A stretch of 64,000 nucleotides of DNA from positions 5,342 through 69,341 of the forward strand of contig CAYTCO010000003.1 of assembly GCA_964436385.1 (NCBI GenBank), read 5' to 3'. The translations under genes were made by a program, and so were the position numbers. The notes under the pieces were generated by a model that worked only from the letters and a program-made list of their open reading frames with translations, ran no database searches and was not told where the DNA came from. Positions 16,489 to 50,851 of the stretch are shown here, in pieces. Numbering within the stretch: position 1 is the stretch's first letter; each line of letters begins with the position of its first letter. Source of the DNA: an uncultured Gammaproteobacteria bacterium. Its GTDB lineage: Bacteria; Patescibacteriota; Microgenomatia; Levybacterales; GWA1-39-11.

Positions 16489-16500
16489 ATGCTCGCTCTA

Positions 16501-16520: not shown

Positions 16521-16541
16521 AATAGCTATCAAAATTAGGAC

Positions 16542-34078: not shown

Positions 34079-35104
34079 TTGAAACAGAAGCTTAGAATAA
34101 CATTTCTTACTAGATTATATCATCCGCACGTAGGTGGTGTCGAGAAGCACTTGGAAGTGTTATCTAAAATGCTTGTAAAAAGAGGGTACATAATAACCAT
34201 CATAACGGAGAAATATGACAACAAGCTTAAATCCTTAGAAACCTATGACGGTATAATGGTATACAGGGTTCCTGTTTCAAAAAATGTCTTTTTTAAAAAG
34301 TTTTTTGTATGGGTATGGATCTGTAAGAATTTAAGTCTTATTTATAACTCTGATGTTGTTCATGTCCATGACATATTCTATTGGATTTTGCCATTTCGCC
34401 TTCTTCTGATTCATAAGAAGATTTATACAACCTTTCATGGTTACGAAGGTTTTCCTGTATCTTGGCGGTGGGTTCTGCAAAGGAAAGTCATAGAAAAGCT
34501 TTCTAATGGAACAATTTGCATCGGCGATTTCATGAAAAAGTGGTATTTAGCTGCTCCAACCTATATTAGCTATGGTGGAGTGAAGCTAGCAAGAGAAATT
34601 AAAGCAAAAAATGACAGGAGTGCAGTTTTTTTTGGAAGACTTGACGATCAAACCGGAATCCTGGAATATATTTCAGCTTATAAGAAAATAAAACAAAAAT
34701 TCCCAAATTTTTCTCTTACTGTTGTTGGAGAGGGCAAATATGTGAAAAAAATACCAAAAGATGTAAGAATCTTGAAATTTACCAAAAATGTAGAAAAATA
34801 CATCTCTGAAAATAGAATAGTTTTTGTTTCTAGGTATTTATCAATGCTTGAAGCTTTAATTCAAAAGAGGGAGATAGTAGCAGTCTATGACAATCCGGTT
34901 AAGAAGGATTACCTTTTAATGTCTCCTTTTGCTAAGTTTGTGCACATCTCAAAAAATGCGACTGAAGTAGAAGCGCATGTCGTTAGGATTTTATCAGAAG
35001 GCGAAAACAAAAAACAAATAGAAGAGGGTTATTTATGGGCAAGAAAAAACACTTGGGAAAATGTTTTGAACACTTATTTCCGTCTTTGGGGAATTAATAA
35101 GTAG
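34079..35104 (+). CDS. Family 4 (GT-B) glycosyltransferase
   Basis: The N-terminus ITFLTRLYHPHVGGVEKHL is GT4-like. The protein is 341 aa. Confidence 0.5.
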   Translation: MKQKLRITFLTRLYHPHVGGVEKHLEVLSKMLVKRGYIITIITEKYDNKLKSLETYDGIMVYRVPVSKNVFFKKFFVWVWICKNLSLIYNSDVVHVHDIFYWILPFRLLLIHKKIYTTFHGYEGFPVSWRWVLQRKVIEKLSNGTICIGDFMKKWYLAAPTYISYGGVKLAREIKAKNDRSAVFFGRLDDQTGILEYISAYKKIKQKFPNFSLTVVGEGKYVKKIPKDVRILKFTKNVEKYISENRIVFVSRYLSMLEALIQKREIVAVYDNPVKKDYLLMSPFAKFVHISKNATEVEAHVVRILSEGENKKQIEEGYLWARKNTWENVLNTYFRLWGINK

Positions 35105-36759
35105 AAAAGTAGAAGAAGTATTCCGACTAGACTTAGTGTATTTCCCAGTTTGACAGACAGTGTATCTTCATATTTCAAAATCACATTATACTCTCCCTTT
35201 TTTAAATAAAATTGGATATGGTTAGATTTTGTTGAATCGATCCATCTAATTAGATGATCTTGTTCATTAACATACAGTTTCCAACCTGGAAAATAGTAAG
35301 TATTCTCGACGAATGATGAGTCGGAAAAAGCGGTTACCCTATACTTATGAAGGATAGGAGTTCTTTCTATTTTGCTAACAGTCGAATTTCCTGAGCGAAC
35401 TGTTATGGGAGAATCAGGAATTGTTTTTTCCCAAAGATTTTTTTCATTTCTATCCTTAGGAGTTGCAGGCTGCAGCCCTTCGCCTTCATGCGTTGAGTAT
35501 GGCAACCTTGATAGTAAATTCTCATCAGTGATATCTGTTAGCATGGCTCTTGTGCCCCAATTTAGTATTGTTGTAAGCATAGCTAAAAAAATCAGAATAT
35601 AGATAATCCATTCACGTTTGATGTACGAAGAACTAATTGCTCCTATAATTGCAACGATAAAAGACATAGGAAGCATAAGTCTGTAGGAAAATTGAAAACT
35701 GGTCATGAATGGCACGGCCTTCCAAATTGGCAAACTTACTGGAAAAAGCAATGCAAAAAGAATAAAAAATATTGTAAAGGACATGATTATCCTCTTTTTG
35801 TCGACTCTTTTAAGTTTTCCTTTAATAAGTAGCCAGCCAGTAAAAAAAAGTAATCCGATTTGAACAAATCCTATTGGGTATGAAAGCTGCCCAATAGGGC
35901 CCTGGTACAAAAAACCGCCTCTCCATGGAGAAATTAAAAAAAGCATAATGCTCTCAAACGAAACTTCAGATGCCTTGCTTTGAATTGTGTGTGTTATCCC
36001 CTCAACAACAGGGAGCCAAAAAAAGGAACTTAAGAGAAGTCCAATAGAAAGTCCACCAAAAGAAACAAGGAAATTTTTTTGCTTTCTTTTTAAGAAAAAC
36101 GGGAAAGCAAAAAGAAAGGGGGTTGTTATAACTGAAATTGCCTGATGAGAAAGAAGAAGTCCTGCATAAGAAAGACTAATTAAGACAACGTTTCTTCTTA
36201 GTAATCCTAGTAAAACTAAAGGCAGGATTGAAAATGCAAACAGCTCACCTAAAGCTACTCTAAAATGCATATCGACAAGGTGATAGGGGGCGAACAAATA
36301 CAAAATACTGCCAAGAAGTGAAGGCGTTTGTTTTAAAAAATGCCTAAGTAACAGATGCATGCTTAATCCAGATAAAATAAAGATTCCAGCAATGACAATT
36401 TTTTCACTTGCTATGAAGCTAAAGCCTAACAATTTAAATAATGCGATAGAGTAATAGGGAAGCGGATAAGTAAAAAGAAACAAAGGGTACCCGTAGTTAG
36501 CATTAAGAAGAGAAGCCCAATGAACCGGGAAAATTCCAAAAGTTAACGAATGCCACAAGTCCATCGACTTTGAAATATTAATAGCAAAGTCCCCACTTTG
36601 ATGAACACCTTGCCTTAAAAGAGAAACAAGGGGAAGGAGTGAAGCAAGGATAAGAAAATATAATTGAAAGTTTTTCTTTTTTCTAAAAATAAGAAGAAAC
36701 ATTGCAAAAACAATAAAAGCAAATAAGCTTATTGATACGGTCCAATACGTTGTTGTCAT
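35074..36759 (-). CDS. Polytopic membrane protein, possible GT-C glycosyltransferase/polymerase
   Basis: It has about 13 TM helices followed by a roughly 150-aa C-terminal soluble domain. No diagnostic motif, so the call rests on context only. Confidence 0.3.
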   Translation of the reverse strand: MTTTYWTVSISLFAFIVFAMFLLIFRKKKNFQLYFLILASLLPLVSLLRQGVHQSGDFAINISKSMDLWHSLTFGIFPVHWASLLNANYGYPLFLFTYPLPYYSIALFKLLGFSFIASEKIVIAGIFILSGLSMHLLLRHFLKQTPSLLGSILYLFAPYHLVDMHFRVALGELFAFSILPLVLLGLLRRNVVLISLSYAGLLLSHQAISVITTPFLFAFPFFLKRKQKNFLVSFGGLSIGLLLSSFFWLPVVEGITHTIQSKASEVSFESIMLFLISPWRGGFLYQGPIGQLSYPIGFVQIGLLFFTGWLLIKGKLKRVDKKRIIMSFTIFFILFALLFPVSLPIWKAVPFMTSFQFSYRLMLPMSFIVAIIGAISSSYIKREWIIYILIFLAMLTTILNWGTRAMLTDITDENLLSRLPYSTHEGEGLQPATPKDRNEKNLWEKTIPDSPITVRSGNSTVSKIERTPILHKYRVTAFSDSSFVENTYYFPGWKLYVNEQDHLIRWIDSTKSNHIQFYLKKGEYNVILKYEDTLSVKLGNTLSLVGILLLLFYLLIPQRRK

Positions 36760-36794: not shown

Positions 36795-37697
36795 ATGAAA
36801 AAAGCATTTGTCGCAACAGTGTTAAATGAGCAGGATCAAGCAAAACTATTCATAGAATCTCTTCTATCACAATCAGTTAAGCCAGATGAAATAGTTATTG
36901 TAGATGCTGGTTCAAATGATGACACAGTGAGCATCATCAATAACTTATTTGAAAAGCAAAGAAATAAAAAGTATAGAGTCCTTACAAAACGAGGCAACAG
37001 ATCTATCGGTAGAAATTGCGGAATAAAAAATGCAAATTCCGAAGTGATAGCTGTTTCCGATTTTGGTTGTGTACTCGATAAGAATTGGTTTGAGAAAATT
37101 ACTAAGCCATTGCAAAATACTAAAAACGATGTTGTTGCAGGGTATTACAGACCCCTTACGTCAAATGTATTTGAAAAGTCACTGTCTACCTATACGTGTT
37201 TTCCAGAAGACAAAATAACAAAGGACTTTCTGCCATCTTCTAGGTCAATTTCATTTAGGAAGGAGGTTTGGAAAAAAGTTGGTGGATATCCTGAGAGATT
37301 AAATACCTGCGAAGATTTAGTCTTTGCAGTAAATTTAAAAAAAGCAGGTTTTAACTTTGTTGTTGAAAAGAAAGCGATCGTTCTCTGGTCTCAAAAGAAA
37401 AATATCAATGAAGCATTCTGGCAACTATATGGATACGCTTTGGGAGATGGTCAGGCTAGGCATATTAGATCTCAAACTCCATTGCTTTATGCTAGATACT
37501 TATTTGCCTTAGTCTTATTAATCATGGGTTATATAAATTTATTATTTATACTCTTCTTCTTGTATTTATTGTGGGCCATTATTAAAAATTATAAGTATGT
37601 AAGAGAAATTCAGGCATTAATATTCCTACCCTTACTTCAATTGATCGCCGACATTGCAGTTTTGTTGGGTACAACCATTGGTCTACTAAGAAGATAA
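36795..37697 (+). CDS. Family 2 glycosyltransferase with C-terminal TM segments
   Basis: It has a GT2 N-terminus (VATVLNEQD...IVIVDAGSNDDT) and two C-terminal TM helices. Confidence 0.6.
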   Translation: MKKAFVATVLNEQDQAKLFIESLLSQSVKPDEIVIVDAGSNDDTVSIINNLFEKQRNKKYRVLTKRGNRSIGRNCGIKNANSEVIAVSDFGCVLDKNWFEKITKPLQNTKNDVVAGYYRPLTSNVFEKSLSTYTCFPEDKITKDFLPSSRSISFRKEVWKKVGGYPERLNTCEDLVFAVNLKKAGFNFVVEKKAIVLWSQKKNINEAFWQLYGYALGDGQARHIRSQTPLLYARYLFALVLLIMGYINLLFILFFLYLLWAIIKNYKYVREIQALIFLPLLQLIADIAVLLGTTIGLLRR

Positions 37698-39161
37698 TTC
37701 TCCCTTTTTCACAGTCTTCTTTACAAGTTTTAGAATAAGCATGAAAGCATCCGGGGAAATAGCAACCACAAGTAATGTATAGGTTGCTGTCACAATCAAA
37801 AGTTTTAAAACAAAGAATACGAAGCTGCTTGGCATGAATACATTTACGAAGTGGGAGATTAAAAATGTAACTCCAAAGATGATTAAATTTTTAACTGTAA
37901 TTCCAAGAAAGTTAACGTATACTTTTTCTTTATGACAAATAAATATGTATGTCACAAAAAGTAAAAGATTGCTGATAAAAAATCCGATTGAAATGCCTGT
38001 AAAACCGTATTTAAGAAGTAATAAATAAGAAATTATTATTTCAATAATTGTTATTGTTGTTCCGAAGAATAATAGTTGTTTTATTTTCCCAATTGCAAGA
38101 AGAGCTTGACCTAGCAAGCCAACACCATTAAGAAAGAAGATGCTTCCCACATACCAATACAATGCGGGTAGAGCAGGAAGCCATTTGTCGTTAAGAAAAA
38201 AATGTATAAAGTCGCGACCAAAGATTATCGTAATTGGAATAATTAAAGTTGCGGTTACGCTTATCAGCTTAAAAGCTTGTTCAAGCGAAGTTTTAATATT
38301 AGGTTTATTGTCCTGGAGTCTTGAGAATGACGAAAATGAAACACGTCCTAGATTATCAATAAATACTCTTGGTAACGATGAGATATTAAAACTCCAATCT
38401 AATAGACCAGTGTCACTAAAGGGAAGTCTTGTGCCCCCAATGACTGGAATTACAGCACTTCGAAATATAGTCAGAAAGAATCCTAATTGAAAAAACTTTC
38501 CAATATCTAGAAAATCCCTTATGCTCTTCAAATTGAAAGTTAATCTGGGTAACCAAGGTTTAAAAGAAAACGTAACTAGAGTTTCGGCAATAGTCATTGC
38601 TACAACTGCCCAAATAAAACTCCAGATATTAAATCCAAATGAGGCTAGCAGAATTGCAACGAAGTAGTAAGAGACCATTCCAGATAGATCAATTATTGCT
38701 ATATCGCGGTACCTGAGGTTTCGTTCAAGAACCGCACTAATTATTGTTTGAAGTGGTTTTATGAGAAGCGTTAGAGATAGAATTCTAAGCATTAAGATTT
38801 CCGCTTGCCCAAATTGATGATAAACCAAGTGAATAAATTGGGAAGATATATTGAGAACTACAATTGCTAAAAGCGTGAGGATCAATTTAGTGAAGAATAT
38901 TGTCGATAATTGTAGTTGGGTTGGTTCTTTCTTTCTTTGAATTATTGTAAGACTAAGTCCTATATCTGTGAATATCTCAATTGTCGAAAGCAAAAAAGAA
39001 AGAATCGCAAAGACTCCAAAAGACGCGGGTGACAGTAATTTAACCAGAAGTAATTGACCAGAAATTGCAATCACTTTCATTCCCATCTCTCTTGTTATTA
39101 GCTGTATGGTTCCATGGATGGTCTTCTCTTTAATTTCTTTTATTTTCCGCTTAGATTTCAT
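37686..39161 (-). CDS. MOP/Wzx-like oligosaccharide flippase
   Basis: It has about 12-14 TM helices and the polysaccharide biosynthesis protein architecture. It lies in the glycan locus. Confidence 0.5.
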   Translation of the reverse strand: MKSKRKIKEIKEKTIHGTIQLITREMGMKVIAISGQLLLVKLLSPASFGVFAILSFLLSTIEIFTDIGLSLTIIQRKKEPTQLQLSTIFFTKLILTLLAIVVLNISSQFIHLVYHQFGQAEILMLRILSLTLLIKPLQTIISAVLERNLRYRDIAIIDLSGMVSYYFVAILLASFGFNIWSFIWAVVAMTIAETLVTFSFKPWLPRLTFNLKSIRDFLDIGKFFQLGFFLTIFRSAVIPVIGGTRLPFSDTGLLDWSFNISSLPRVFIDNLGRVSFSSFSRLQDNKPNIKTSLEQAFKLISVTATLIIPITIIFGRDFIHFFLNDKWLPALPALYWYVGSIFFLNGVGLLGQALLAIGKIKQLLFFGTTITIIEIIISYLLLLKYGFTGISIGFFISNLLLFVTYIFICHKEKVYVNFLGITVKNLIIFGVTFLISHFVNVFMPSSFVFFVLKLLIVTATYTLLVVAISPDAFMLILKLVKKTVKKGELSS

Positions 39162-39184: not shown

Positions 39185-39832
39185 CTATTTTTTAAAAGGT
39201 ACTGAATTGTTTTTACTGTCGTTTTTAGTTTCTTTGGACTTTATTTGTGCCATGCAAGCTGTAAGAATGTGGCCTACCATTAAATGAATATCTTCAATTG
39301 GGCCATAATGATTTGATTGAATTATCAAATCGATGTCTACTAATTTTGACAATTTGCCTCCAGTTTTAAATCCAGTTAACCCAACGGTTACGGCACCAAC
39401 TTTACGAGCATATTTTACTGCTTTTAAAACATTGGAACTGTTTCCGCTTCCGGATATTAAGATCACAACATCGTTTTCTTCAAGTAAGTTCTGAAGTTGT
39501 TGAATGAATATTGAGTCATAGCCAACATCGTTTGCGTAAGCAGAAATAAGAGCAGTGTTGTCAGTTAGTGAAATAACTCTTATTCGTTTTTCTTTCTGAT
39601 TGTACATCCTGCTTAGGGTACCTTTACCGAGGTCACACGCAATATGAGATGCTATGCTTGCGCTTCCACCATTGCCAAGAATATATATTCGTTTGTTCTC
39701 CCTGTAGGCTTTATTTATAGCTTCAACTATTAAAGCAATTTTTCCTTTATCAAGTTGTTTTATCGCAAGCTTTACTTCCTTAATGTAGGAATCTACAAAA
39801 CTTCGGGTAATTTCATGAGTTGTATTTTTCAT
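39185..39832 (-). CDS. gmhA: Sedoheptulose-7-phosphate isomerase (SIS domain)
   Basis: ILGNGGSASIASHIACDL is the SIS/GmhA motif. The protein is 215 aa. Confidence 0.7.
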   Translation of the reverse strand: MKNTTHEITRSFVDSYIKEVKLAIKQLDKGKIALIVEAINKAYRENKRIYILGNGGSASIASHIACDLGKGTLSRMYNQKEKRIRVISLTDNTALISAYANDVGYDSIFIQQLQNLLEENDVVILISGSGNSSNVLKAVKYARKVGAVTVGLTGFKTGGKLSKLVDIDLIIQSNHYGPIEDIHLMVGHILTACMAQIKSKETKNDSKNNSVPFKK

Positions 39833-39834
39833 AT

Positions 39835-40818
39835 TTAGTCACTTACGAAAATAATTTTACTTCCTTGATTTTCGAAAGAAAATTCTATTGGTGTTAGCTT
39901 TGGCAAAGATTTTATAATACTAGCATGTTTTTTTTGATCAGCATAGAAAAGTAGGAAGCCACCACCGCCAGCGCCTAGCAATTTTCCACCTTCAGCACCA
40001 TTTTTGATAGCAGTATCGTACCACCTATTAATTTGATTGGAGCTTATGCTTTTGGCGAGTGACTTTTTTAGTTTCCAATTTTCATCCAGAAGTTTTCCAA
40101 AATTCTTTAGCTTGTTGTTCTGAAGAGCAAGTGTCATTTCTTGCGCAAGTTTAACCATCTTATCCATGCTTGCTCTTTTTTCAGTTGAGCTTTTAATATT
40201 AGAGATTTGCTCAGTAAGTATTGTATTTGAGGAGCGGGTTTTGCCTGTATATAGTAGGAGTAAATTTTTTTGCAATTTATTTTTGGTGAGATTGCTGCAA
40301 ATGATAGGAATATTTCCAACTTTTCCACTGGGGTAAAAAACGAAATTTTGCATTCCGCCAAAAGCAGCTATATATTGATCCTGTTTTCCAATTCTTTTTT
40401 TTAATGTTTCAATTTCTATCCTACATGCCTCTTGGGCTAACCGCTCTGCTGAGACATGCTTTCCAACATACGCATAGAACGCATTTAATAAGCCAACTAT
40501 ATAGCTGCTTGATGATCCAAGTCCTGTTCCCTCAGATGGGATGTCTGAAATTGAAGTTATTTCTATGCCACCTTTTATACCAACGGTTTTCAGACACTCC
40601 TTTATGTACTCATGTTTAAGCTTGGATACGGTTGAAACAATTTCTGTTTGTGAGTAGCTTGCTCGTATTTTGTTGTCAAATTTTTTATTAACAGCAATAT
40701 ATATATACTTATCTATTGCAGTCGAAAGAACGGCACCAGGAGAGTTTTTGTAATAGTCGTATATATCACTACCACCTCCGACAAAACTAATCCTTAAAGG
40801 TGTTCGTGAGATTATCAT
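39835..40818 (-). CDS. hddA: D-glycero-alpha-D-manno-heptose 7-phosphate kinase (GHMP kinase)
   Basis: The GHMP N-terminus PLRISFVGGGSDI and GTGLGSSSS are present. It is adjacent to gmhA and hddC. Confidence 0.65.
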   Translation of the reverse strand: MIISRTPLRISFVGGGSDIYDYYKNSPGAVLSTAIDKYIYIAVNKKFDNKIRASYSQTEIVSTVSKLKHEYIKECLKTVGIKGGIEITSISDIPSEGTGLGSSSSYIVGLLNAFYAYVGKHVSAERLAQEACRIEIETLKKRIGKQDQYIAAFGGMQNFVFYPSGKVGNIPIICSNLTKNKLQKNLLLLYTGKTRSSNTILTEQISNIKSSTEKRASMDKMVKLAQEMTLALQNNKLKNFGKLLDENWKLKKSLAKSISSNQINRWYDTAIKNGAEGGKLLGAGGGGFLLFYADQKKHASIIKSLPKLTPIEFSFENQGSKIIFVSD

Positions 40819-41516
40819 TTTTCAAATAGTTCTTTAGCTTTTCTAAGTCTTTCTGGAGTGCCTATATCCATAATAAATTCTTTCGTATTATAACAGAAAA
40901 TATTTTTCTTACTCCTTAAGACAAATGGCAAAAGATCATGCGCAAAATCAAATGGTGTTGGCAATACAAGATACTTTTTAATGCTAGGACTTATAAGATA
41001 TAGAGCTGCTAAATTGTGAGGATCTTTTGGAATATTCGTATGAGGCTTTCTAAGTATTTGTGTAAGTTTAAAATTTTTGTCAAATAAAACAAGGTCACTG
41101 TCTTCTGGATGTTTTGAAAGATGAATTGCTGCAGTAACCATAGAATTATTTTTCAAATGATATTTATGCATTTTTTTAAAATTCACATTTGTTATTACAT
41201 CACCATAAAGTAGTAGTGTATCTTCAGTAATAAATTTTTGTATTGGCACTAAGGCTCCGCCTGTGCCGATTAGCTTTTCCTCAAGCGAATATGAAATTTT
41301 CATTCCAATTTTTTTACCATCACCGAAGTGTTTGATTATTACATCTGCAAGATAATGCACAGTTATGCAAACTTCGGTTATGCCGTTTTTCTTAAGATTT
41401 TCAAGAAGCACCTGAAGAAGTGGTTTTTCATTGATTAACACCATTGGTTTGGGTATTACTTTTGAAACTTCAGGAAGTCTTGTACCTTTTCCTCCACAAT
41501 TTATTATCGCTCTCAT
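40815..41516 (-). CDS. hddC: D-glycero-alpha-D-manno-heptose 1-phosphate guanylyltransferase-like nucleotidyltransferase
   Basis: It has MRAIINCGGKGTRL. The protein is 233 aa and overlaps its neighbours by 4 bp. Confidence 0.6.
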   Translation of the reverse strand: MRAIINCGGKGTRLPEVSKVIPKPMVLINEKPLLQVLLENLKKNGITEVCITVHYLADVIIKHFGDGKKIGMKISYSLEEKLIGTGGALVPIQKFITEDTLLLYGDVITNVNFKKMHKYHLKNNSMVTAAIHLSKHPEDSDLVLFDKNFKLTQILRKPHTNIPKDPHNLAALYLISPSIKKYLVLPTPFDFAHDLLPFVLRSKKNIFCYNTKEFIMDIGTPERLRKAKELFEK

Positions 41517-42100
41517 ATTAATTCAATTAAATCATTTACCCCATTAATAAACTTTTCCTCGATAAAATCTGGCGACAATTTATTTTTGTCTACGTAATTT
41601 TTCTTAGAAAACAAGACAGTTCTTGCATTTATTTTTCTGCCAAATTCAACATCTCTAAAAGAATCTCCCATAACGCCTAAAATTTTCGTAATTGCGTAAT
41701 CCTTTTGAGATTCAAGAAACATAGAAATCCCTGGTTTTCGACAAGAGCACAAAATGGAATATTTTTTATTGGAACCTTCTGGGTGATGAGGGCATGAATA
41801 AATACCATCAATATAGGCTTTCTTTTGAGCAAGTTTTTCGACAAGAAAAGAATTTGTTTTTTTTATGTTTTGGATGGACGCGTAGCTATGCGCTACTATA
41901 GGTTGATTAGTAACAATAACAACTGCTATTTTTAGTCTATTAAGCTTTGCAATGCCACGCGCTACTGTCGGAAGTATTTGTAGTTGATCGGATGTGTGAG
42001 GGTATCCAACGTCCTTATTTATCGTTCCATCACGGTCTAAGTACACAATGGCTTGATAGTTCTTAAGATTTCTAAATATCTGTTTTACTCCCTCAAACAT
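41513..42100 (-). CDS. gmhB: D,D-heptose 1,7-bisphosphate phosphatase (HAD family)
   Basis: It has the HAD motif I YLDRDGTIN and Zn-binding Cys (CPHHPEG...CSCRKP) typical of GmhB. Confidence 0.7.
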   Translation of the reverse strand: MFEGVKQIFRNLKNYQAIVYLDRDGTINKDVGYPHTSDQLQILPTVARGIAKLNRLKIAVVIVTNQPIVAHSYASIQNIKKTNSFLVEKLAQKKAYIDGIYSCPHHPEGSNKKYSILCSCRKPGISMFLESQKDYAITKILGVMGDSFRDVEFGRKINARTVLFSKKNYVDKNKLSPDFIEEKFINGVNDLIELI

Positions 42101-42105
42101 GATTT

Positions 42106-42819
42106 CTATTTTTTAACAATTATTTCTACTGAACCTACAGCTACGTCTGTGGAATATTTTCTTGCAAATTCCTCTACCCATTTTACATTTAATGCAAAGC
42201 TGGGTTTTTTATTGAAGCCAATGACTCCCAGATTAAGTGCTAGATGTTCATCTCTAAATGAGTAATTAAATATTAAAAAGTGATCAAATCCAGCTTTTGT
42301 TACCATTTCAGACAAGGAGTCCTCATCGAATAATGATTTGTGAAGTTGTTCTTGCCACCAGCCGTCTGCTTGCTCAGGATTGCCGTGAGTGTATCTGTAT
42401 GCCTCATTTACATCAAACTTTTTATAAAGTATTCCAGGTGTTCTCTTTAGATATGAATCGGCAACTATTCTAAAGTCAGGCATTCCTAGGTAAATGAGTA
42501 TTCCGTTCGGTTTAAGAGTTCTTTTAGCATCGGTAAGATGTGGAATTCTCTGATCTTTATACAAATGTTCAAAAAATGCATTGCTAAAAACCGTTTGAAA
42601 ACTCTTGTTTGGAAAAATCGTAAGTTTTGTTGAGTTTTGAGCAATATCGGTTGCTTTTGTTGCTCTTACATCCAGGTTAATAAAATTAGTAAGTCTTATG
42701 TCACCACATCCAACATGTAGTCCTGAGTTGCTTTTGATAAGAGATTCTAGCCTAAAATTCTTATTTATTAAGCAACGTACGTTTGAAAATACTTCCTCAA
42801 GCAGTCTTCTGGTTCTCAT
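42106..42819 (-). CDS. Class I SAM-dependent methyltransferase
   Basis: It has the motif I LHVGCGD. The protein is 237 aa. Confidence 0.5.
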   Translation of the reverse strand: MRTRRLLEEVFSNVRCLINKNFRLESLIKSNSGLHVGCGDIRLTNFINLDVRATKATDIAQNSTKLTIFPNKSFQTVFSNAFFEHLYKDQRIPHLTDAKRTLKPNGILIYLGMPDFRIVADSYLKRTPGILYKKFDVNEAYRYTHGNPEQADGWWQEQLHKSLFDEDSLSEMVTKAGFDHFLIFNYSFRDEHLALNLGVIGFNKKPSFALNVKWVEEFARKYSTDVAVGSVEIIVKK

Positions 42820-43727
42820 ATTTTTCGGGCGTAAATTTCTACCATTGATCCTTTATTAAATATATTCAATAAAGGGTGAAGATATTGGCAAAGAGTATCC
42901 TCAAAAAACTTATTCTTGATAGACTTTTCGGTTTTCTTGTTTTGATTTTGATTTTTTGTATTTATTTTGTGGGTTACTTTCCTTAACTCTGATTTTGGCT
43001 CTCTTAACGCTCTATATATGCCTCCAAAATCCATAGGGTAGCCGTATGTTGTAGTTCTAATTACTTTAAAGCCTGCTTTTTCTAATAAAACTTCAAGCGT
43101 TTTTGGCGAAAAATAAAGAATGTGTTCTGGGGGTATTAAGTAGTTGAATCTCTCTTTTAAAACTATCGAAAGCCAGCTCTCAATGTTGGGAGTAGAAACA
43201 CAGAGAATCCCGTCCTTCTTAAGAAGTTTATTAATTTTTTCAAGAACCAAATATGGATCAACAAGATGTTCTATGACTTGTTGTAGAGAAATAACGTCAT
43301 AAGTCTCCGAAGTCTTATGCTTTAGAATGTCCTTTTGTTCAGCAGGTAGTTTTAGTTTTTTTGAAGCATAAACTATTGGGCTTTTTGCTGTATCAATTCC
43401 TTTAACATTCCACTTTTGCTTTCTTGCTTCGTCAATAAAAAAGCCCGCACCACAACCAACGTCTAAGATACTACCTTTTTTAATGCCCATTGCGTTCAGA
43501 TTTGAAAGACTTCGCCTAGCATCTATTCGAAGCAGTTTTTCAAAAACAAATCCATCTGAAAATTTAAACTTCTTGTAAAAGATGTCGAGCTCTTTTTTCC
43601 CAGGGAGTGGAGCAATAAAAACAAATGAACAATTCAAGCACTTAACAATTGAGTAATTGTTAATTGCATACAATTTCTTAAACCGTTTCTTGCTGCATAT
43701 TATGCAATTTGGAATTTTTACTGTCAT
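42816..43727 (-). CDS. Class I SAM-dependent methyltransferase with N-terminal Zn-ribbon
   Basis: It has CIICSKK...CLNC followed by ILDVGCGAGFF. Confidence 0.6.
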   Translation of the reverse strand: MTVKIPNCIICSKKRFKKLYAINNYSIVKCLNCSFVFIAPLPGKKELDIFYKKFKFSDGFVFEKLLRIDARRSLSNLNAMGIKKGSILDVGCGAGFFIDEARKQKWNVKGIDTAKSPIVYASKKLKLPAEQKDILKHKTSETYDVISLQQVIEHLVDPYLVLEKINKLLKKDGILCVSTPNIESWLSIVLKERFNYLIPPEHILYFSPKTLEVLLEKAGFKVIRTTTYGYPMDFGGIYRALREPKSELRKVTHKINTKNQNQNKKTEKSIKNKFFEDTLCQYLHPLLNIFNKGSMVEIYARKI

Positions 43728-44587
43728 TTGTATAATTTTCTAAGCTGCCTGTATTTTACTCTTAGGAAGTGTTTGATGTTAAGAAGCTTAATGTATTGAT
43801 TCTTAAACTTTTGCTTGTCAGACTCATTCACAAACATGTGTCTGTATTTGCTTAAGTTTTCTTGTAGGTAGACAGGCAGAGATTTAATATCTGCGAAATC
43901 AAATTTGTCTCCGTGATTTAAGAAATCCCTTTTTTGAATAATTGCAATCATAATTTTTTCTTTCGTATTGTATTTGTCGTTATTAAATTCTTGATGAGAT
44001 CCTGTTGCCATTTTTTCTCTAATTTTCTTAATCCCACCCATATACGAAAAATGCCAGCCGCCGTTTTTTATATTTACAGAATTTGGGCTATGTCTTATCA
44101 CATAAGCATCTTGGTATGTCAAAAAATCTTTGTAAGTTAGCATTTTAGGACCATACCAGATGCGATTTGTACTTGCAAAATTTAGAAAATAATAAAAGAA
44201 AGTTTGCTCGAAAACCTTTAGTTTTCCTGGTCTGTTTTTATATTTAAGTATTTGCTCTGGATTTGGTATTTCGTCCAAATTTGAGATAAGAATGGTGTCG
44301 TTTCCTTGGGCCTTGGAAAGGCCTCTTGTGGCGGCAGCCATTAGAAAATGCTCGATTATCCAAGGGTGTGAAACGTTTGGACTGTCGCGGACAACAACAT
44401 GAATAATCTTATCTCTGAATTTTATATACCTTTTTGCGTTAATCTTGTAGTAGAGTGGTTTCTTAAGATTTGTATAAGTTCTGTCGCTTTCAATTAATAC
44501 GAATTTATCTACCACTTTATCCAAAACGTTGAGACGTATTTCTAACAAGTCCAACTCATTATAAAAAGTAAAACAATCGTAAACCAT
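43724..44587 (-). CDS. GT17-like (bisecting GlcNAc transferase family) glycosyltransferase
   Basis: The N-terminus MVYDCFTFYNELDLLEIRLNVLDKVVDKFVLIESDRTY matches the Glyco_transf_17 signature (F.F.NELDLLEIRL...VD.FV.IES). Confidence 0.5.
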   Translation of the reverse strand: MVYDCFTFYNELDLLEIRLNVLDKVVDKFVLIESDRTYTNLKKPLYYKINAKRYIKFRDKIIHVVVRDSPNVSHPWIIEHFLMAAATRGLSKAQGNDTILISNLDEIPNPEQILKYKNRPGKLKVFEQTFFYYFLNFASTNRIWYGPKMLTYKDFLTYQDAYVIRHSPNSVNIKNGGWHFSYMGGIKKIREKMATGSHQEFNNDKYNTKEKIMIAIIQKRDFLNHGDKFDFADIKSLPVYLQENLSKYRHMFVNESDKQKFKNQYIKLLNIKHFLRVKYRQLRKLYK

Positions 44588-44605
44588 ATTTTTTTTTACA
44601 GCTAT

Positions 44606-45559
44606 TTAAGAGATCAAATCCAATACAGTTTTTTCAACAGCTGCCCTAGATGAATACTTGGCTTTCCAGCCTGTCGATTTTAAATTTGATGTGTTTAGTC
44701 TTATAACTGGAACATCACCAGGCCAGCCAAATTTACTTTTGGCTCTTTCAATTCTAACTTTCTTAAGTCCCATTAGCTTTATAACTGAATTTGCAATCGA
44801 GTTAACTGAAATAAATGAATCTGACGAAACGTTATAAATTTCAATTCCTTTTTTGTTAGTTTTAGTAACAAGCATGATGGCTTTTAAAAGATCTGTTACG
44901 TAAACGTAAGATTTGCTTTGTAGTCCATCTCCAAGTATCTGTAAATTCGACGGATCTGTTTTTAATTTGTTTATAAAATCAAAAATAACTCCATGAGTTG
45001 CTCTAGGACCGATTATATTTGCAGGTCTAAGTATCCATGATCGAAAGTTAAAAAGATTAGAATACGCACAAATTAAGCCTTCTGCTGACAATTTAGTTGC
45101 ACCATACATTGATTGAGGAAGCAATGGGCCATAGTTTTCAGATATTAACTTTTGGCCTACATCGCCATAAACACCGCTCCCGGAGAGAAAAACTATGTTT
45201 TTTACACCCCTATCTTTCATTACTTCTAAAAGGTTAAAAGTTGAAATAGTTGTATTGTCTATGTCAATTTGAGGATTAGAAAAGCCCTTTGATACATCAG
45301 CATTTGCAGCTAGGTGAAAAACTACATCTGTTTCCTTTGGCAAAGATTTAGAAAGCAGTTTTTTATTCAACAAATCACCTTTTATAAATTTAAAATTCTT
45401 GCTTTTTATACATCCAGATAGAAAATGCTTTTTCCCTGTAGATAAGTTGTCAAAGACTGTAACCTTTCTTTTTTCCTGCACTAGGACATCCGCTAAATGG
45501 CTCCCTATAAAACCAGCCCCTCCAGTTATAAATATAGTCTTGAAGTTTTTATTTAGCAT
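44606..45559 (-). CDS. NAD-dependent nucleotide-sugar epimerase/dehydratase/reductase (SDR)
   Basis: It has IFITGGAGFIGSHL and a YxxxK-type core. Confidence 0.7.
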   Translation of the reverse strand: MLNKNFKTIFITGGAGFIGSHLADVLVQEKRKVTVFDNLSTGKKHFLSGCIKSKNFKFIKGDLLNKKLLSKSLPKETDVVFHLAANADVSKGFSNPQIDIDNTTISTFNLLEVMKDRGVKNIVFLSGSGVYGDVGQKLISENYGPLLPQSMYGATKLSAEGLICAYSNLFNFRSWILRPANIIGPRATHGVIFDFINKLKTDPSNLQILGDGLQSKSYVYVTDLLKAIMLVTKTNKKGIEIYNVSSDSFISVNSIANSVIKLMGLKKVRIERAKSKFGWPGDVPVIRLNTSNLKSTGWKAKYSSRAAVEKTVLDLIS

Positions 45560-45624
45560 TTAGATTAGGGGCAGAAATTTGTCGATTAATTATAGCATGA
45601 GAAATTTCATACAAATTAAAGTAT

Positions 45625-46668
45625 GTGATATTATATCCTGACCTTATGAGAACCTTAATTACCGGTGGAGCTGGCTTCATTGGAAGCCACGTAGCGAATT
45701 ATTTAGTAGAAAATACAAAGCACAAGGTGTATGTGGTTGACGACCTTTCTGGTGGTTTTTTGCATAATCTTCCTAATGGGGTTGTTTTTCAAAAACTTGA
45801 TCTTCGCGACAGAAACCAAACCGAAAAATTTATAAATAAAGTAAAACCTCATATTATTTATCATCTCGCGGCAGATGCAACTGAGGGTAGAAGTCAATTT
45901 ACTCCTATTTCAGCAACTGAAAGAAACCAGCTTGCGTATATGTATCTTCTTATTCCAGCTATAAAGAATGGACTAAAAAAAATGATTTTAACGAGTTCAA
46001 TGAGTGTATATGGAAGTCAAAAGGCTCCATTCTCAGAGGATATGAAAAGGCTACCTGATGACATATATGGTATCTCAAAAGCAGCAATGGAGCAGACTAC
46101 CGAGGTATTATCAAAAGTTTATGGATTTGATTATGTAATAATAAGGCCGCACAACGTATACGGTCCAAAACAAAATCTCACAGACCCTTATAGAAATGTA
46201 ATTGGTATTTTTATTAACTGCCTGTTAAATAACAAGAATTACTACATCTATGGAAATGGGAAACAAAAAAGAGCATTCACTTATATAGATGATTGTGCAC
46301 CCTATATTGCAAGAAGTGCATTTGAAAAAAAATGCATTAACCAGATTATTAATCTCGGTCCTTCTCAGGCGTATACAATCAACGAAGTTTCAAAACTTGT
46401 TCTTAAAAATTTCTTTGAGAAAGAGATTCCTGCCAAATTAAAACCGAAATACTTAGATTTAAGACCTCAAGAAGTAGTGGAGGCATTTTGTACAATTGAT
46501 AAGGCAAAAAAGCTATTGGGATATGAAACGAGTTATAGTCTTTCGCAAGGGGTAGAAGAAATGGTTAAGTGGGCAAAAGAACTAGGACCTCAGAAATTCA
46601 AATATTTAGACAACCTAGAACTTGAGAGTAATAAGCTGCCCATAACATGGAAGAGGAAGCTTATTTAG
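45625..46668 (+). CDS. NAD-dependent nucleotide-sugar 4,6-dehydratase/epimerase (SDR)
   Basis: It has LITGGAGFIGSHV. The protein is 347 aa. Confidence 0.7.
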   Translation: MILYPDLMRTLITGGAGFIGSHVANYLVENTKHKVYVVDDLSGGFLHNLPNGVVFQKLDLRDRNQTEKFINKVKPHIIYHLAADATEGRSQFTPISATERNQLAYMYLLIPAIKNGLKKMILTSSMSVYGSQKAPFSEDMKRLPDDIYGISKAAMEQTTEVLSKVYGFDYVIIRPHNVYGPKQNLTDPYRNVIGIFINCLLNNKNYYIYGNGKQKRAFTYIDDCAPYIARSAFEKKCINQIINLGPSQAYTINEVSKLVLKNFFEKEIPAKLKPKYLDLRPQEVVEAFCTIDKAKKLLGYETSYSLSQGVEEMVKWAKELGPQKFKYLDNLELESNKLPITWKRKLI

Positions 46669-47563: not shown

Positions 47564-48666
47564 TGAAAATTGCCGTATTTCACGAATTGCATAATGGTGG
47601 AGCAAAAAGAGCAGTAACTGAAATCGGAAGACATCTCAAAGAGACTGATGTGGTCGATCTTTATGTCTCTGGCCAAAAACCAGATAAGGAGGAAAAAGCA
47701 TCGTTTAGAAGAGTTTACAGTTTCCCTTTTGCGTCAAAAGTATGGAGACGGGGAGACTGGATTGCAAAACTTTATAAAGATACTTACGAGTATGTAAAGC
47801 TTTTGAATCATCACAAAAAAATTGCCGAGAAACTCAATAAGGGAAATTACGATTTAGTGTTCATACATCCTTCGCAGTTTACTCAAGCTCCTTTTATTTT
47901 GCTGTTCGTAAAAGCAACAAGGATATATTACTGCCAGGAACCATTAAGAATAGTTTATGACAAAGCATTAAATGATTTATCCCATATCCATGGTGCAAGA
48001 AAGGCTTATGAGTTAGCAGCAAGAACAATTAGACGAGTTATTGATAGGGTGAATTTAAGTCGAGCAGATTACATATTTTGCAATTCAGAATTTTCAAAAG
48101 ATTCAATAAATAGGGCATACGGAGTTAAGGCTAGGGTAAAATATTTAGGAGTTGACCATAAATTTTTCAAACCTAGCAAAGCAGCAAAAAAGGTAGATGT
48201 TCTTTACTTTGGATCACACGAAAGAATTGAGATGTACGAATTGTTCAAAAATGCAATTAAGGGATTGCCGAAAAGAATTAAGATACATGAGCATTTTCCC
48301 GGGCACAATTGGGTTTCTGACGAGTCACTTCGCAAAATGTATCAGGAATCAAAATTGGTCATTACACTGCATAAGAATGAGCCATTTGGGCTTATCCCGA
48401 TTGAGGCTGCTTCGTGTGGAACAATTACAATTGCCCTTGATAGCGGAGGCCATAAAGAGTCAATAATTGATGGAAAAACTGGTTACTTGATAGGGCAAGA
48501 TCAACATGCCTTATCTAATAAATTAATGTCAGTTTTGGCAAATGATTCGAGAAGAAAACTTATGGAAAGCCAGGCAAGAGCAAATGTAGCTGAGCGGTGG
48601 ACATGGGAAGTAAGTGTCAAAAACATTCGTAAAGAATTATTAAAAATTCATGAAAAAAAGAATTAA
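47557..48666 (+). CDS. Family 4 glycosyltransferase
   Basis: It has the GT4 C-terminal motif EPFGLIPIEAASCGTITIA. Confidence 0.65.
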   Translation: MVMKIAVFHELHNGGAKRAVTEIGRHLKETDVVDLYVSGQKPDKEEKASFRRVYSFPFASKVWRRGDWIAKLYKDTYEYVKLLNHHKKIAEKLNKGNYDLVFIHPSQFTQAPFILLFVKATRIYYCQEPLRIVYDKALNDLSHIHGARKAYELAARTIRRVIDRVNLSRADYIFCNSEFSKDSINRAYGVKARVKYLGVDHKFFKPSKAAKKVDVLYFGSHERIEMYELFKNAIKGLPKRIKIHEHFPGHNWVSDESLRKMYQESKLVITLHKNEPFGLIPIEAASCGTITIALDSGGHKESIIDGKTGYLIGQDQHALSNKLMSVLANDSRRKLMESQARANVAERWTWEVSVKNIRKELLKIHEKKN

Positions 48667-50851
48667 GCTATCCATAATTTATGTTTATTTCAATACTCCA
48701 AAGGAGATTGTAGATTCTATCGCCTCATTAAAAGAAGCAACATCCATAAATAATTTTGAAGTAATTGTTGTTAATAATAACTCCCCAAAAAATCTTCCAA
48801 AAATGCCCCATTTAAAAAAGATAAAAGTAATTAAGAGCAAAAGAAATTTGGGATTTGGGGCAGGTTGCAACTTAGGAGCAAAGAAAGCCTCAGGTAAATA
48901 TTTGTTATTCATAAATCCAGACACTATATTTAAAAAAAGCTCGATAGATATTCTTTTAAAAAAAATTTCTTCAAACAAGAATATAGGAGTTGTAGGACCA
49001 AAAATGGTCTCAGAAGCCGGAAAGACTCTGCCCACTACAAGCACATTCATAAGCCCATTTAATGCCTTATTTAAGTTTTCTTTCCTTGGAAAATTTTTAA
49101 CTAAAAACGTAGTTACAAAAGGACAAACCGATGTTTTAAGTGGAGCGTGTCTTCTTATAAAGAAAAACGTTTTCGAAGAGGTAGAAGGCTTTGATGAGAA
49201 TTTCTTTATGTATTTTGAAGAACAAGATTTATGTAAGAGAATTGCTGATCTTGGATACAAAATTGTTTATGAGCCCAAATCTCAAATCACTCATTTTATC
49301 GGTAGAAGCTTAAGTAATAAAAAAACTATAGAGGAATACTTCCGAACTAGTAGATATAAATACTCGAAGAAACACTTCGGAAACAAGAAAGCAGCCATTA
49401 TTGAATTCATCTTAAGAAATCTGAGCATAACAAATGTTGCCATTTTTGTAATTTTCTGTTTGTCACTTTTTCTAAATACATTCCGTATGTCTGAGTTAAT
49501 GCTTCTGATTGGGGACAGCGCTCGTGACTTTATTGCTGGGCAAGCAATGATTGAAACCGGCAAGATTCCACTGGTTGGAATTCCTTCATCTGTTACATGG
49601 CTTCATCAAGGCCCAATTTCAGTTTGGCTTATTGGACTTTCGTTTTTATTCTCAAACACAAACCCTGTCGCTCCAGGTTATTTATTTGGCTTCCTAGGTG
49701 CTATAAGTACTGCTTTAGTTTATCTTCTTGGAAAAACGTATTTCAACAAGAGAGTAGGTGTACTGTCTGCTTTGCTTTTTGCCACAGCACCAATGATTAC
49801 AGTAAATAGCAGAATGCCCTATCACACTTCACTGATTCCGCTTTTTACGCTTATTTTCTTTCTGGTCTTGCATAAATCTATTAGTAAAACGAAATTACTT
49901 CCGTTGATGTTCTTTTTTCTCGGTATTCTGCTTCAGGTAGAACTATCAAACATTGTTGTATTTGGATTGGTTTTTATCACATTACGTATTTTGAAAATTC
50001 ATGCCTCTAGATTAGAAATTGTTAAATCAATTATTGGATTTATAACTGGAATCTCTCCCTTCATTTTGTATGATCTAACTCGCGGTTTTTCGTATTCTTT
50101 ATTCCCCCTATGGATTCTTAACCGTTTGCGTCTTTTTGCTGGTATCGGAACTGACAATGCTCCAACTTCATCAGGTTTGCCAAATGCAATTAATACTTTT
50201 TATCATCAGATTTCGGCTTCAATTTTTCCGAACATTCCTTACTTTGGACTGGTTATTTTTATGGTCTCACTAATTATTTTGGCATGGTTTACTTATTCCA
50301 AAAGAAGCAAAGGCAATCTATTACTATTACTTTGGATTACTGTTCCATCTATTGCGTTTTTATTGCATGCGTCACCAGGAACGGCTTACTTTGCACTGTT
50401 GTATCCTGCCATTTCATTAACCTTTGGTTTCTTTTTAGATAAACTAACATCAAAAACACAATTGTCATATCTTTTTATCGCGGCTATAGTTGCATCTAAC
50501 GTATTTTTATTGATTAAGAATGATTTTTACGTAACTAGCAAAAATGGACCACATCTTATGCCTCCTTCTGGTTATTCTTTTGGAAATACGTGGGTTTTTG
50601 TTAATGAAACATCACATGCGATTGTCGGAAACGCGGCCGGAAAAGAATTTAAAATAACACCACTAGGTTTTCTTAATGAGTACAAAACCAGTATGGATCC
50701 ATATAAATTTCTTATAACAAGAGCGGGAGGAAAATTAAACGATAAAGCTAAAATCAACTATTTAATTACTGTTGAGGGCATAACAAAGGACAAATCTAAA
50801 ATTATATACTCAAATTTTCAAGACCAAGTTGAAAGGTATGAATCTAAATAA
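48650..50851 (+). CDS. Fusion protein: N-terminal GT2 glycosyltransferase + C-terminal polytopic GT-C-like domain
   Basis: Residues 1-250 form a GT2 (IIYVYFNTPKE...VVNNNSP, DxD). Residues about 260-733 contain more than 10 TM helices. Total length is 733 aa. Confidence 0.5.
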   Translation: MKKRIKLSIIYVYFNTPKEIVDSIASLKEATSINNFEVIVVNNNSPKNLPKMPHLKKIKVIKSKRNLGFGAGCNLGAKKASGKYLLFINPDTIFKKSSIDILLKKISSNKNIGVVGPKMVSEAGKTLPTTSTFISPFNALFKFSFLGKFLTKNVVTKGQTDVLSGACLLIKKNVFEEVEGFDENFFMYFEEQDLCKRIADLGYKIVYEPKSQITHFIGRSLSNKKTIEEYFRTSRYKYSKKHFGNKKAAIIEFILRNLSITNVAIFVIFCLSLFLNTFRMSELMLLIGDSARDFIAGQAMIETGKIPLVGIPSSVTWLHQGPISVWLIGLSFLFSNTNPVAPGYLFGFLGAISTALVYLLGKTYFNKRVGVLSALLFATAPMITVNSRMPYHTSLIPLFTLIFFLVLHKSISKTKLLPLMFFFLGILLQVELSNIVVFGLVFITLRILKIHASRLEIVKSIIGFITGISPFILYDLTRGFSYSLFPLWILNRLRLFAGIGTDNAPTSSGLPNAINTFYHQISASIFPNIPYFGLVIFMVSLIILAWFTYSKRSKGNLLLLLWITVPSIAFLLHASPGTAYFALLYPAISLTFGFFLDKLTSKTQLSYLFIAAIVASNVFLLIKNDFYVTSKNGPHLMPPSGYSFGNTWVFVNETSHAIVGNAAGKEFKITPLGFLNEYKTSMDPYKFLITRAGGKLNDKAKINYLITVEGITKDKSKIIYSNFQDQVERYESK

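Follow-up and report, generated by a model that had tools for sequence, protein, structure and literature searches.

A probable GDP-heptose operon with a candidate epimerase-like tailoring enzyme in a Levybacteria-like bacterium of the candidate phyla radiation

Identification of the heptose operon

A 64,000-nucleotide stretch of metagenomic DNA (contig CAYTCO010000003.1, positions 5,342 to 69,341; referred to here as the window, in whose own numbering coordinates are given) was examined for the heptose genes that it carries. In this window, nine consecutive minus-strand genes, from the short-chain dehydrogenase/reductase (SDR) gene designated SDR1 (beginning at 45559) down to a Wzx-type flippase gene (ending at 37686), form a single unit. 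On balance, our data favor the view that this nine-gene operon provides a modified heptose that goes into a cell-surface glycan, with the heptose made by the GDP-heptose route and tailored by SDR1. The four core genes gmhA, hddA, hddC, and gmhB very probably encode the GHMP-kinase (alpha-anomer) route to GDP-D-glycero-D-manno-heptose. The pathway itself is already known; what is new is the lineage, that of a Levybacteria-like bacterium of the candidate phyla radiation (CPR), and an uncharacterized tailoring variant comes with it. All nine open reading frames (ORFs) that an earlier note on this DNA had listed for the region were recovered at exactly the coordinates it gave. Homologous loci and proteins from other assemblies are cited below by L and P numbers, respectively.

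Core GDP-heptose genes

The gene hddA (39835 to 40818, minus strand; Pfam GHMP kinase) encodes the predicted D-glycero-D-manno-heptose 7-phosphate kinase of the alpha-anomer route. When compared with NCBIfam models, the protein scored 170 bits against HddA, compared with 100 bits against fucokinase, 85 against mevalonate kinase, and 59 against galactokinase. Among PDB structures, WcbL (4usk), a Bacteroides protein (3k85), and a Campylobacter jejuni protein (4n3o) were matched at 139, 138, and 132 bits, respectively, whereas the other families reached only 70 (fucokinase), 48 (mevalonate kinase), and 39 bits (galactokinase). The kinase does not group with the galactokinases or mevalonate kinases, its HddA/WcbL scores being clearly higher. 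Its homologs number in the thousands in the CPR; the best 120 share 60-72% identity, those with names come from Candidatus Levybacteria, Parcubacteria, and the 'Patescibacteria group', and some are labeled heptose-7-phosphate kinase by JGI.

The top four NCBIfam matches of the sedoheptulose-7-phosphate isomerase-like protein GmhA (39185 to 39832, minus strand; Pfam SIS_2/SIS) were all GmhA models (111, 103, 87, and 78 bits), with DiaA next at 60 bits, and the two best matches of GmhB (41513 to 42100, minus strand; Pfam HAD-like), a heptose-1,7-bisphosphate 7-phosphatase-like protein of the HAD-IIIA type, were GmhB models (108.7 and 98.9 bits). Moreover, GmhA contains the motif GNGGSA, and GmhB contains DRDGT together with a CxH...CxC-RKP loop, which we take to be hallmarks of these two proteins.

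The nucleotidyltransferase (NTase) gene hddC (40815 to 41516, minus strand) encodes an HddC-like, putative heptose-1-phosphate guanylyltransferase of 233 aa with a single domain (Pfam NTP_transferase, 96 bits). Its NCBIfam scores were 115.0 bits for HddC and 113.5 bits for mannose-1-phosphate guanylyltransferase, and in the PDB its match to Yersinia HddC (78 bits) was level with that to 8x7s, a UDP-glucose pyrophosphorylase. When a profile of 13 cassette NTases was used, 8x7s, Yersinia HddC, and GMPPB scored 161, 152, and 143 bits, respectively, compared with at most 95 bits for RmlA, glucose-1-phosphate cytidylyltransferase, and other thymidylyl- or cytidylyltransferases. Judged from sequence, the clade of this enzyme is clear and its sugar is not. 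In Yersinia HddC, the Glu of the motif EXXPLGTGGA binds N1 and N2 of guanine (PMC6981941). The window's protein reads EEKLIGTGGA, in which the Glu at the Glu80 position is kept and Pro and Leu are replaced by Leu and Ile, respectively; its close orthologs read E[TA]K[PL]LGTGG. In addition, hddC shares 4 bp with hddA and 4 bp with gmhB, hddA flanks the NTase gene in about 18 loci, and HddC is fused to GmhB in a 393-aa protein of the Patescibacteria contig L006 (8823 to 10004), a fusion noted for L006/L007. The guanine-binding Glu in a single-domain protein, the 4-bp overlaps with hddA and gmhB, and the GmhB fusion together favor heptose and GTP as the substrates of HddC.

Among 22 heptose loci, gmhA comes after hddA in 16, and a gene resembling fructose-6-phosphate aldolase/transaldolase (TIGR00875, 162 bits) lies directly beside or after gmhB in 8 (L099, at 8354 to 9004, and L103, L108, L116, L132, L139, L157, and L171). 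This neighbor, which is absent from the window, fits a role in sedoheptulose-7-phosphate supply. Scanning of the window's ORFs of at least 100 aa, and of a few shorter ones, turned up no kinase of the PfkB/HldE type, no ADP-heptose epimerase, and no cupin epimerase (dTDP_sugar_isom). The earlier note had reported no HldE-like gene and had preferred the alpha-anomer GDP-heptose route, with its GHMP kinase, to the ADP-heptose one. The former statement holds across the scanned ORFs, and the latter is supported by the HddA/WcbL-type kinase, the best-scoring GmhA and GmhB models, the Glu of HddC, and the gene fusions.

SDR1 and its linkage to the heptose genes

SDR1 (44606 to 45559, minus strand), the first gene of the operon, encodes an extended SDR that resembles GDP-sugar 4-epimerases. 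In the PDB it matched PhGal4E_1 (8RDG/8RDH; 269 bits for 8RDG, 44% identity), an Archaeoglobus protein (3EHE, 234 bits), and a Pyrobaculum protein (3ICP/3AW9; 200 bits for 3ICP). These solved relatives belong to an archaeal 4-epimerase subgroup that prefers GDP-sugars (PMC12171764). SDR1 keeps the Y-x3-K pair (Y152/K156), N174 (equivalent to N181), H182 (equivalent to H189), and the Trp of a GWxGDV motif (W279, D282). Across 26 homologs of 51-84% identity, which are mostly from the CPR where a source name was given, SGSG, Y152/K156, N181, H189, and GW.GD (W279, D282) were invariant. We infer that the GWxGDV Trp corresponds to the guanine-stacking residue described for PhGal4E_1, a residue that the text consulted leaves unnumbered (PMC12171764).

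Linkage of SDR1 to the heptose genes was surveyed by scanning metagenome contigs with the alignment of the 26 homologs; 80 loci were returned and were searched for the window's heptose genes. hddA was present in 20 of the 80 loci, and in 17 of the 41 loci of at least 6 kb. The usual order, on one strand, was SDR-hddC-hddA-gmhA-gmhB (L103, L105, L115, L116, L138, L150, and L161). When the long loci were grouped by the SDR active-site motif, hddA lay nearby in 7 of 10 loci of the SGSG type compared with none of 15 of the STST type (hypergeometric p ~2.5e-4, for a grouping chosen after the data had been seen). In a rough neighbor-joining tree, all SGSG sequences, including that of the window, formed one clade, with the three characterized archaeal enzymes outside it, among or beside the STST/SSST sequences. 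The SGSG clade is widespread, with loci that span 32-56% G+C and include HddC-epimerase fusions. The 551-aa fusion P0289 (L091, 339 to 1994) joins an HddC-like domain (36% identity to the window's HddC; motif ENKPLGTSGA) to an SDR1-like domain; its gene immediately follows a gmhA fragment, and C-methyltransferase, ManC-type, and Bac_transf genes adjoin it.

Taken together, these data are good evidence, at the genomic level, that what HddC makes is the substrate of the SGSG clade, and the linkage makes it likely that SDR1 modifies GDP-heptose. The reaction could be C4 epimerization, for which we consider the chances about equal either way. That assignment comes only from homology, and its combination with a preference for GDP-sugars comes only from the 44% identity to PhGal4E_1 and the linkage to a guanylyltransferase gene. 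Orthology of SDR1 to the SDRs beside the heptose genes in L004 and L006 was rejected (26-31% identity), and the tailoring enzymes differ between CPR lineages.

Active-site residues of SDR1 and SDR2

4,6-Dehydratases carry Thr plus Glu (as in GDP-mannose 4,6-dehydratase, GMD) or Asp-Glu (as in RmlB) just before the conserved YG. The earlier note had spoken of tailoring dehydratases, calling the two SDRs of the region dehydratase/epimerases, and had predicted a 6-deoxy and/or O-methyl heptose. The active-site wall reads SGSGVYG in SDR1 and SSMSVYG in SDR2, neither has Glu or Asp where a dehydratase carries its acid/base pair, and the NCBIfam gmd model gave these proteins only 43 and 28 bits, respectively. 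The L004 heptose cassette served as a positive control: its gmd-like gene shows CTPEEYG, and gmd is the NCBIfam model that it matches best; on this comparison, a 6-deoxyheptose is reasonable for L004, but not for the window. SDR1 and SDR2 were rejected as DEHYDRATASES because the catalytic Thr/Glu or Asp-Glu pair is missing from both walls. Their nearest solved structures are 4-epimerases, and no GMD-type dehydratase was found in the window. Both the dehydratase label and the 6-deoxyheptose prediction were thus abandoned, and no 6-deoxygenation is predicted for the window operon.

SDR2 (45625 to 46668, plus strand) is a GalE-like extended SDR, a putative NDP-hexose 4-epimerase, whose likely start is the ATG at 45646 chosen by the gene callers; this gives 340 aa, the length also called in L001. 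By its PDB matches (4zrm, 6dnt, and 6zl6 at 159, 147, and 117 bits, respectively), it resembles UDP-hexose, UDP-HexNAc, and UDP-GlcA 4-epimerases. Because it is GalE-like, heads a divergent GT2/GT4/GT2-PMT_2 operon (GT, glycosyltransferase), and has no counterpart in L088 and L089, which are syntenic relatives, SDR2 was not counted in the heptose module and probably lies outside it. The earlier note had placed two methyltransferases, a GT17-like enzyme, and two SDRs directly after the core genes. Pfam confirmed the families, but SDR2 is transcribed divergently. As a separate observation on gene starts, AAAGGAGG lies 5′ of the ATG at 47563, suggesting that the GT4 gene starts there and not at the TTG at 47557.

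Operon structure, glycosyltransferase, and methyltransferases

The nine genes of the heptose operon are spaced by -4 to 23 bp, with ATGA overlaps of 4 bp at 40815, 41513, 42816, and 43724 and, between these, gaps of 18, 5, 2, and 23 bp. In the entire window, 9 of 47 same-strand junctions have a 4-bp overlap, 4 of these in the heptose operon, so the overlaps of the operon represent ordinary tight packing. The earlier note had described the six genes from 39835 to 44587 as all coupled by 4-bp overlaps and as a single operon. Four of these five junctions are of the ATGA type, but the fifth (42100/42106) is a 5-bp gap; the tight packing agrees with a single operon, but the transcription unit is larger than was claimed, extending from SDR1 through the Wzx-type flippase gene. 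The same order, SDR1-GT17-MT-B-[x]-gmhB-hddC-hddA-gmhA-wzx, was found in L088 and L089, at 59-73% identity. Promoter and terminator scans returned sites no more numerous than in shuffled sequence, and no promoter is claimed for the short intergenic region (45560 to 45645) that separates the SDR1 operon from the divergent SDR2-GT operon. Upstream of the heptose operon genes, no recognizable Shine-Dalgarno sequence was found.

The second gene of the operon (43724 to 44587, minus strand) encodes a soluble, bacterial GT17-family glycosyltransferase of 287 aa. It matched Pfam Glyco_transf_17 (PF04724) at 94.9 bits (E 6.7e-27; cut-off, 26) over profile positions 75-309 of 348, and it contains the conserved motifs D..E, DEIP, GGWHFS, and SHQE. 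Our search found no related solved structure, and the bacterial members of GT17 are described as uncharacterized (PMC4202792). The closest GT17 locus in GTDB is in a Levyibacteriota metagenome-assembled genome. hddA was found within 10 kb of GT17 in none of 80 homologous GTDB loci from many phyla, with loci L009-L087 spread over Proteobacteria, Bacteroidota, Bdellovibrio, Verrucomicrobiota, and CPR, and the idea of GT17 as a heptose-linked family was rejected on that count. Recurrent neighbors in the 80 loci were GT2 (35), GT4 (23), and GT9-family genes (13). The last of these, of the heptosyltransferase family, lay within 4 kb of GT17 in those 13 loci, a hint that heptose-containing, lipopolysaccharide-core-like glycans may often be where GT17 enzymes act. 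Another GT17 homolog (52% identity) lies between ftsZ and a flippase gene; amino-sugar genes adjoin it, and heptose genes are absent. The window's GT17 arrangement recurs only in the close relatives L088 and L089, and in most other loci SDR1 abuts hddC; GT17 and the METHYLTRANSFERASES thus have the look of an insertion into the heptose cassette that is specific to this lineage. Such an insertion suggests that GT17 and the methyltransferases may act on the heptose or its glycan, and it is operon membership in this lineage, by itself, that ties GT17 to heptose.

Two S-adenosylmethionine (SAM)-dependent methyltransferases are encoded between GT17 and gmhB. MT-A (42106 to 42819, minus strand) is a divergent class-I enzyme with a weak match to Pfam Methyltransf_11 (26.5 bits, residues 59-109); no PDB relative was found. 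Its family comprises 1265 representative clusters, and domains homologous to it are fused to GT2 domains in P0385, P0401, P0409, and P0415, which supports a role that is probably glycan modification. In L088 and L089, the MT-A slot (11749 to 13110 in each) is occupied by a 453-aa GDSL/SGNH gene, and a second GDSL gene is present in their divergent operon; O-methylation and O-acylation may thus be alternative decorations. MT-B (42816 to 43727, minus strand) has an N-terminal CxxC...CxxC segment, matched Pfam Methyltransf_23 at 89.5 bits, and had only generic methyltransferase matches in the PDB; it keeps its place directly after GT17 in L008, L088, and L089. NCBIfam, too, yielded nothing beyond generic methyltransferase matches for the two enzymes. 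O-methylation of the heptose is plausible.

The final gene of the operon (37686 to 39161, minus strand), 23 bp after gmhA, encodes a Wzx-type MOP flippase (Pfam Polysacc_synt_3, 160 bits) that also matched NCBIfam MOP flippase and O-glycosylation Wzx models; it occupies the same position in L088 and L089. A small GT2 of the polyprenyl-phosphate glycosyltransferase type (AglJ/DPM1/PpgS-like) was found in 11 of the 22 heptose loci, inside the heptose operon itself in L102, L107, L114, and L150; the window's member lies at 53678 to 54409. The cluster also has a GT2-PMT_2 fusion and several membrane proteins of the PMT_2/PTPS_related kind, and together with such a GT2 they make a lipid-phosphate-heptose intermediate conceivable, one that would be used outside the membrane, although this is only a lead, GT2 being so common. 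The GT-C-like membrane proteins (PTPS_related, PMT_2) of the window lie at 35074 to 36759, 48650 to 52646, and 62341 to 63939, and one of them is the GT2-PMT_2 fusion, of 733 aa.

Host and remainder of the window

The locus is present as exact copies in the metagenome assembly GCA_020049755.1 and in two sequencing runs. In addition to the heptose genes, the window (about 35% G+C) carries a dcw cell-wall/division cluster and genes for IleRS, ParB, and ribosomal protein L21, and it is chromosomal DNA of a Levybacteria-like CPR bacterium. Searches of the window for tRNA and for Rfam families gave no matches, and no names for its proteins were found in public sources.

Other features of the window were recorded as follows. 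In the dcw cluster, GlmU is apparently split into a nucleotidyltransferase (3550 to 4362) and a left-handed beta-helix acetyltransferase (4355 to 4993). Directly after ftsZ, a stretch of low G+C content (0.34-0.35; 11622 to 19403) contains an OLD-family AAA/TOPRIM ATPase (11622 to 13334), four ORFs without a Pfam match, a tyrosine integrase (17329 to 18396), and a Fic/DOC protein (19014 to 19403); it looks like an integrated mobile or defense island. In the relative L090, glycan genes come straight after ftsZ. A second sugar pathway (52633 to 57696) comprises an FnlA-like UDP-GlcNAc 4,6-dehydratase/5-epimerase (401 bits), an RmlD-like reductase, a WecB-like 2-epimerase (200 bits), and an NDP-sugar C-methyltransferase (Methyltransf_13/14), which suggests a 6-deoxy-L-HexNAc product, possibly C-methylated. 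A third SDR of the GDP-sugar type (23576 to 24547), with the motif SSACVYP, scored 162 bits for GDP-fucose synthase and 149 bits for GDP-mannose 3,5-epimerase; it sits with a small GT2 (22920 to 23603) and a PMT_2 membrane protein (21390 to 22955). A 619-aa ORF (58052 to 59911) had no Pfam match.

Discussion

In the pathway that we propose, GmhA would isomerize sedoheptulose-7-phosphate, HddA would phosphorylate C1 to give the alpha-1,7-bisphosphate, GmhB would take off the 7-phosphate, and HddC would carry out the heptose-1-phosphate guanylyltransferase step. These four core steps are deduced from homology, motifs, synteny, and gene fusions. SDR1 would then act on GDP-heptose, inverting C4 through a transient 4-keto intermediate to yield the D-glycero-D-talo epimer. 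Thereafter, the glycan would be built by GT17 or by a GT2/GT4 enzyme of the surrounding cluster, MT-A and MT-B would O-methylate it, and the Wzx flippase would export the lipid-linked product; the assembly, methylation, and export steps are assigned from operon membership only.

Several observations weigh against this proposal. All four core proteins missed the NCBIfam equivalog cut-offs (GmhA, 111 of 209; HddA, 170 of 600; HddC, 115 of 300; GmhB, 109 of 178 bits) and, as far as their sequences tell, are divergent members of their families; by sequence, HddC does not separate from the mannose-1-phosphate guanylyltransferases or from the UDP-glucose pyrophosphorylase of the same clade. In SDR1, positions that contact the sugar differ from those of the characterized epimerase, with Gly in place of the catalytic Ser/Thr (the third residue ahead of the V in VYG), Ala for P80, and Ser for R83 (a Lys follows one position later), so its chemistry could differ as well. 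In 3 of the 10 SGSG loci, the available DNA shows no heptose genes; the loci were grouped by motif post hoc; and the neighbor-joining tree carries no support values. The archaeal relatives are promiscuous, and a natural substrate is not addressed in the PhGal4E_1 paper (PMC12171764). Homologs of GT17 elsewhere never adjoin hddA (none of the 80 loci), and in the cluster neither an initiating phosphoglycosyltransferase nor a polymerase (Wzy) was recognized.

Three other explanations were considered. That the SDRs are a DmhA/DmhB-like pair of 4,6-dehydratase and reductase, with the operon making GDP-6-deoxy-heptose, possibly O-methylated, is very improbable. Both SDRs do match the broad Pfam families GDP_Man_Dehyd and Epimerase, the top NCBIfam model of SDR1 is nominally dTDP-glucose 4,6-dehydratase (154.8 bits, far below the cut-off of that model, compared with 151.7 for GalE), and the heptose cassette of L004, another Levybacteria genome, does include a genuine gmd-like gene and a reductase-like one. 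Neither window protein, however, has the acid/base Glu/Asp (L004 has T..E), their gmd scores are low and their closest structures are those of 4-epimerases, and SDR2 lies on the other strand and is missing in the syntenic relatives. Somewhat less remote, but still unlikely, is the possibility that SDR1 acts on GDP-heptose with a different chemistry, either as a Cj1427-like C4 dehydrogenase that releases a 4-keto sugar or as an HldD-like C6 epimerase that yields GDP-L-glycero-D-manno-heptose. The replacement of the canonical Ser/Thr by Gly and the changes in the red loop are invariant across the SGSG clade and suggest an altered positioning of a larger sugar; the SDR at 23576 to 24547, which is similar to GDP-fucose synthase and GDP-mannose 3,5-epimerase, could reduce a 4-keto product, and the logic of a dehydrogenase plus a reductase is used by Campylobacter (PMC10680097). 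Nevertheless, SDR1 is the sole tailoring enzyme beside the four core genes in most linked loci, which would leave a released 4-keto sugar without a partner, and for C6 epimerization the ADP-heptose 6-epimerase model gave SDR1 80 bits compared with 152 for GalE. The SDR at 23576 to 24547 itself lies 20 kb off in another unit, and its candidacy as a Campylobacter-type heptose reductase was unsupported, with 66-109 bits for the Campylobacter heptose reductases compared with 162 for GDP-fucose synthase.

It is also improbable, though less so than the dehydratase explanation, that the NTase and SDR1 act on a hexose (for example, GDP-mannose to GDP-talose or GDP-glucose to GDP-galactose) and that the kinase, isomerase, and phosphatase serve something else. 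In line with such a role, HddC is level with mannose-1-phosphate guanylyltransferase and UDP-glucose pyrophosphorylase in sequence comparisons, a ManC-type gene is found near the HddC-SDR fusion in L091, and PhGal4E_1 epimerizes GDP-Glc, GDP-L-Fuc, and UDP-Glc (PMC12171764). On the other hand, the NTase gene overlaps its neighbors hddA and gmhB, is joined to gmhB in the L006 fusion, and is flanked by hddA in the loci counted above, and its 233-aa product has a single domain, as in Yersinia HddC, without the C-terminal beta-helix of the ManC enzymes. A GDP-heptose route with tailoring by SDR1 remains the reading that we favor. A bolder version of it, which we put forward only tentatively and think rather doubtful, is that the SGSG clade is a previously unrecognized family of single-enzyme GDP-heptose C4-epimerases and that the operon builds a methylated talo-heptose surface glycan, with GT17 having been co-opted to transfer the manno/talo-configured heptose or to act on it. 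If true, this would provide a first functional handle on bacterial GT17.

The CPR bacteria are uncultivated and their envelope chemistry is almost unknown, and the conservation and abundance of a GDP-heptose cassette point to surface glycans that contain heptose in bacteria without lipopolysaccharide; the best 120 homologs of HddA (60-72% identity) are mostly from Levybacteria and other Patescibacteria. Through the link of the SGSG clade to heptose genes, a group of GDP-sugar epimerases known so far only as 'promiscuous' gains a natural substrate that can be tested, and the link also suggests a one-enzyme route to C4-inverted heptoses that would be useful for making rare nucleotide sugars. The analysis also corrects an attractive but wrong 6-deoxyheptose annotation.

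Comparison with known systems

Aneurinibacillus is a further case of the GDP-heptose enzyme set found in the window. The known GHMP-kinase GDP-heptose route likewise encodes these four enzyme families in a single operon, has a GHMP kinase in the place of HldE, and has the guanine-binding Glu in HddC (PMC6981941, PMC4691232, PMC10680097). The window differs in that its host belongs to the CPR, its proteins fall below the curated cut-offs, and the gene order and tailoring genes are others. The DmhA/DmhB pathway of Yersinia, Burkholderia, and Campylobacter branches from the same GDP-heptose, and L004 has an apparently equivalent gmd-like and reductase-like pair; unlike that pathway, the window has no GMD-type dehydratase, and the catalytic pair is missing in both of its SDRs. 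HldD-type ADP-heptose 6-epimerases are likewise SDRs for a nucleotide-activated heptose that are encoded with heptose genes, but they belong to another SDR lineage than SDR1, use ADP-beta-heptose, and act at C6. MGAT3 (GnT-III), the founding member of GT17, is classed as an inverting enzyme of the GT-A fold (PMC4202792, PMC7185993). The window's GT17 is a clear match to this family, but it is a soluble bacterial protein, and UDP-GlcNAc as its donor has no support. An activity like that of MGAT3 would be the transfer of beta-1,4-GlcNAc to a manno-configured acceptor.

Tailoring in C. jejuni employs two or three enzymes (the C4-dehydrogenase Cj1427, cupin C3/C5 epimerases, and C4-reductases like GDP-fucose synthase) and an external keto-acid acceptor, whereas a single Gal4E-like enzyme is proposed here. 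Unlike in the Cj1427/Cj1430/Cj1428-type system, no cupin epimerase was detected in the scanned ORFs of the window, and its sole gene resembling GDP-fucose synthase is 20 kb away. In the Campylobacter study, C4 is handled by a dehydrogenase and separate reductases, the D-talo isomer of the 6-deoxy series is listed among those not observed, and no D-talo product appears among the D-glycero-heptose syntheses consulted there (PMC10680097). Closest to SDR1 are PhGal4E_1 and the other archaeal GDP-sugar 4-epimerases (8RDG/8RDH, 3EHE, and 3ICP/3AW9), with which it shares Y-x3-K, N174, H182, and the GWxGDV Trp at 44% identity to PhGal4E_1 (PMC12171764). SDR1 differs from this subgroup in having SGSG rather than SSST/STST in its active-site wall, in not keeping P80 and R83, and in belonging to a separate, heptose-linked clade.

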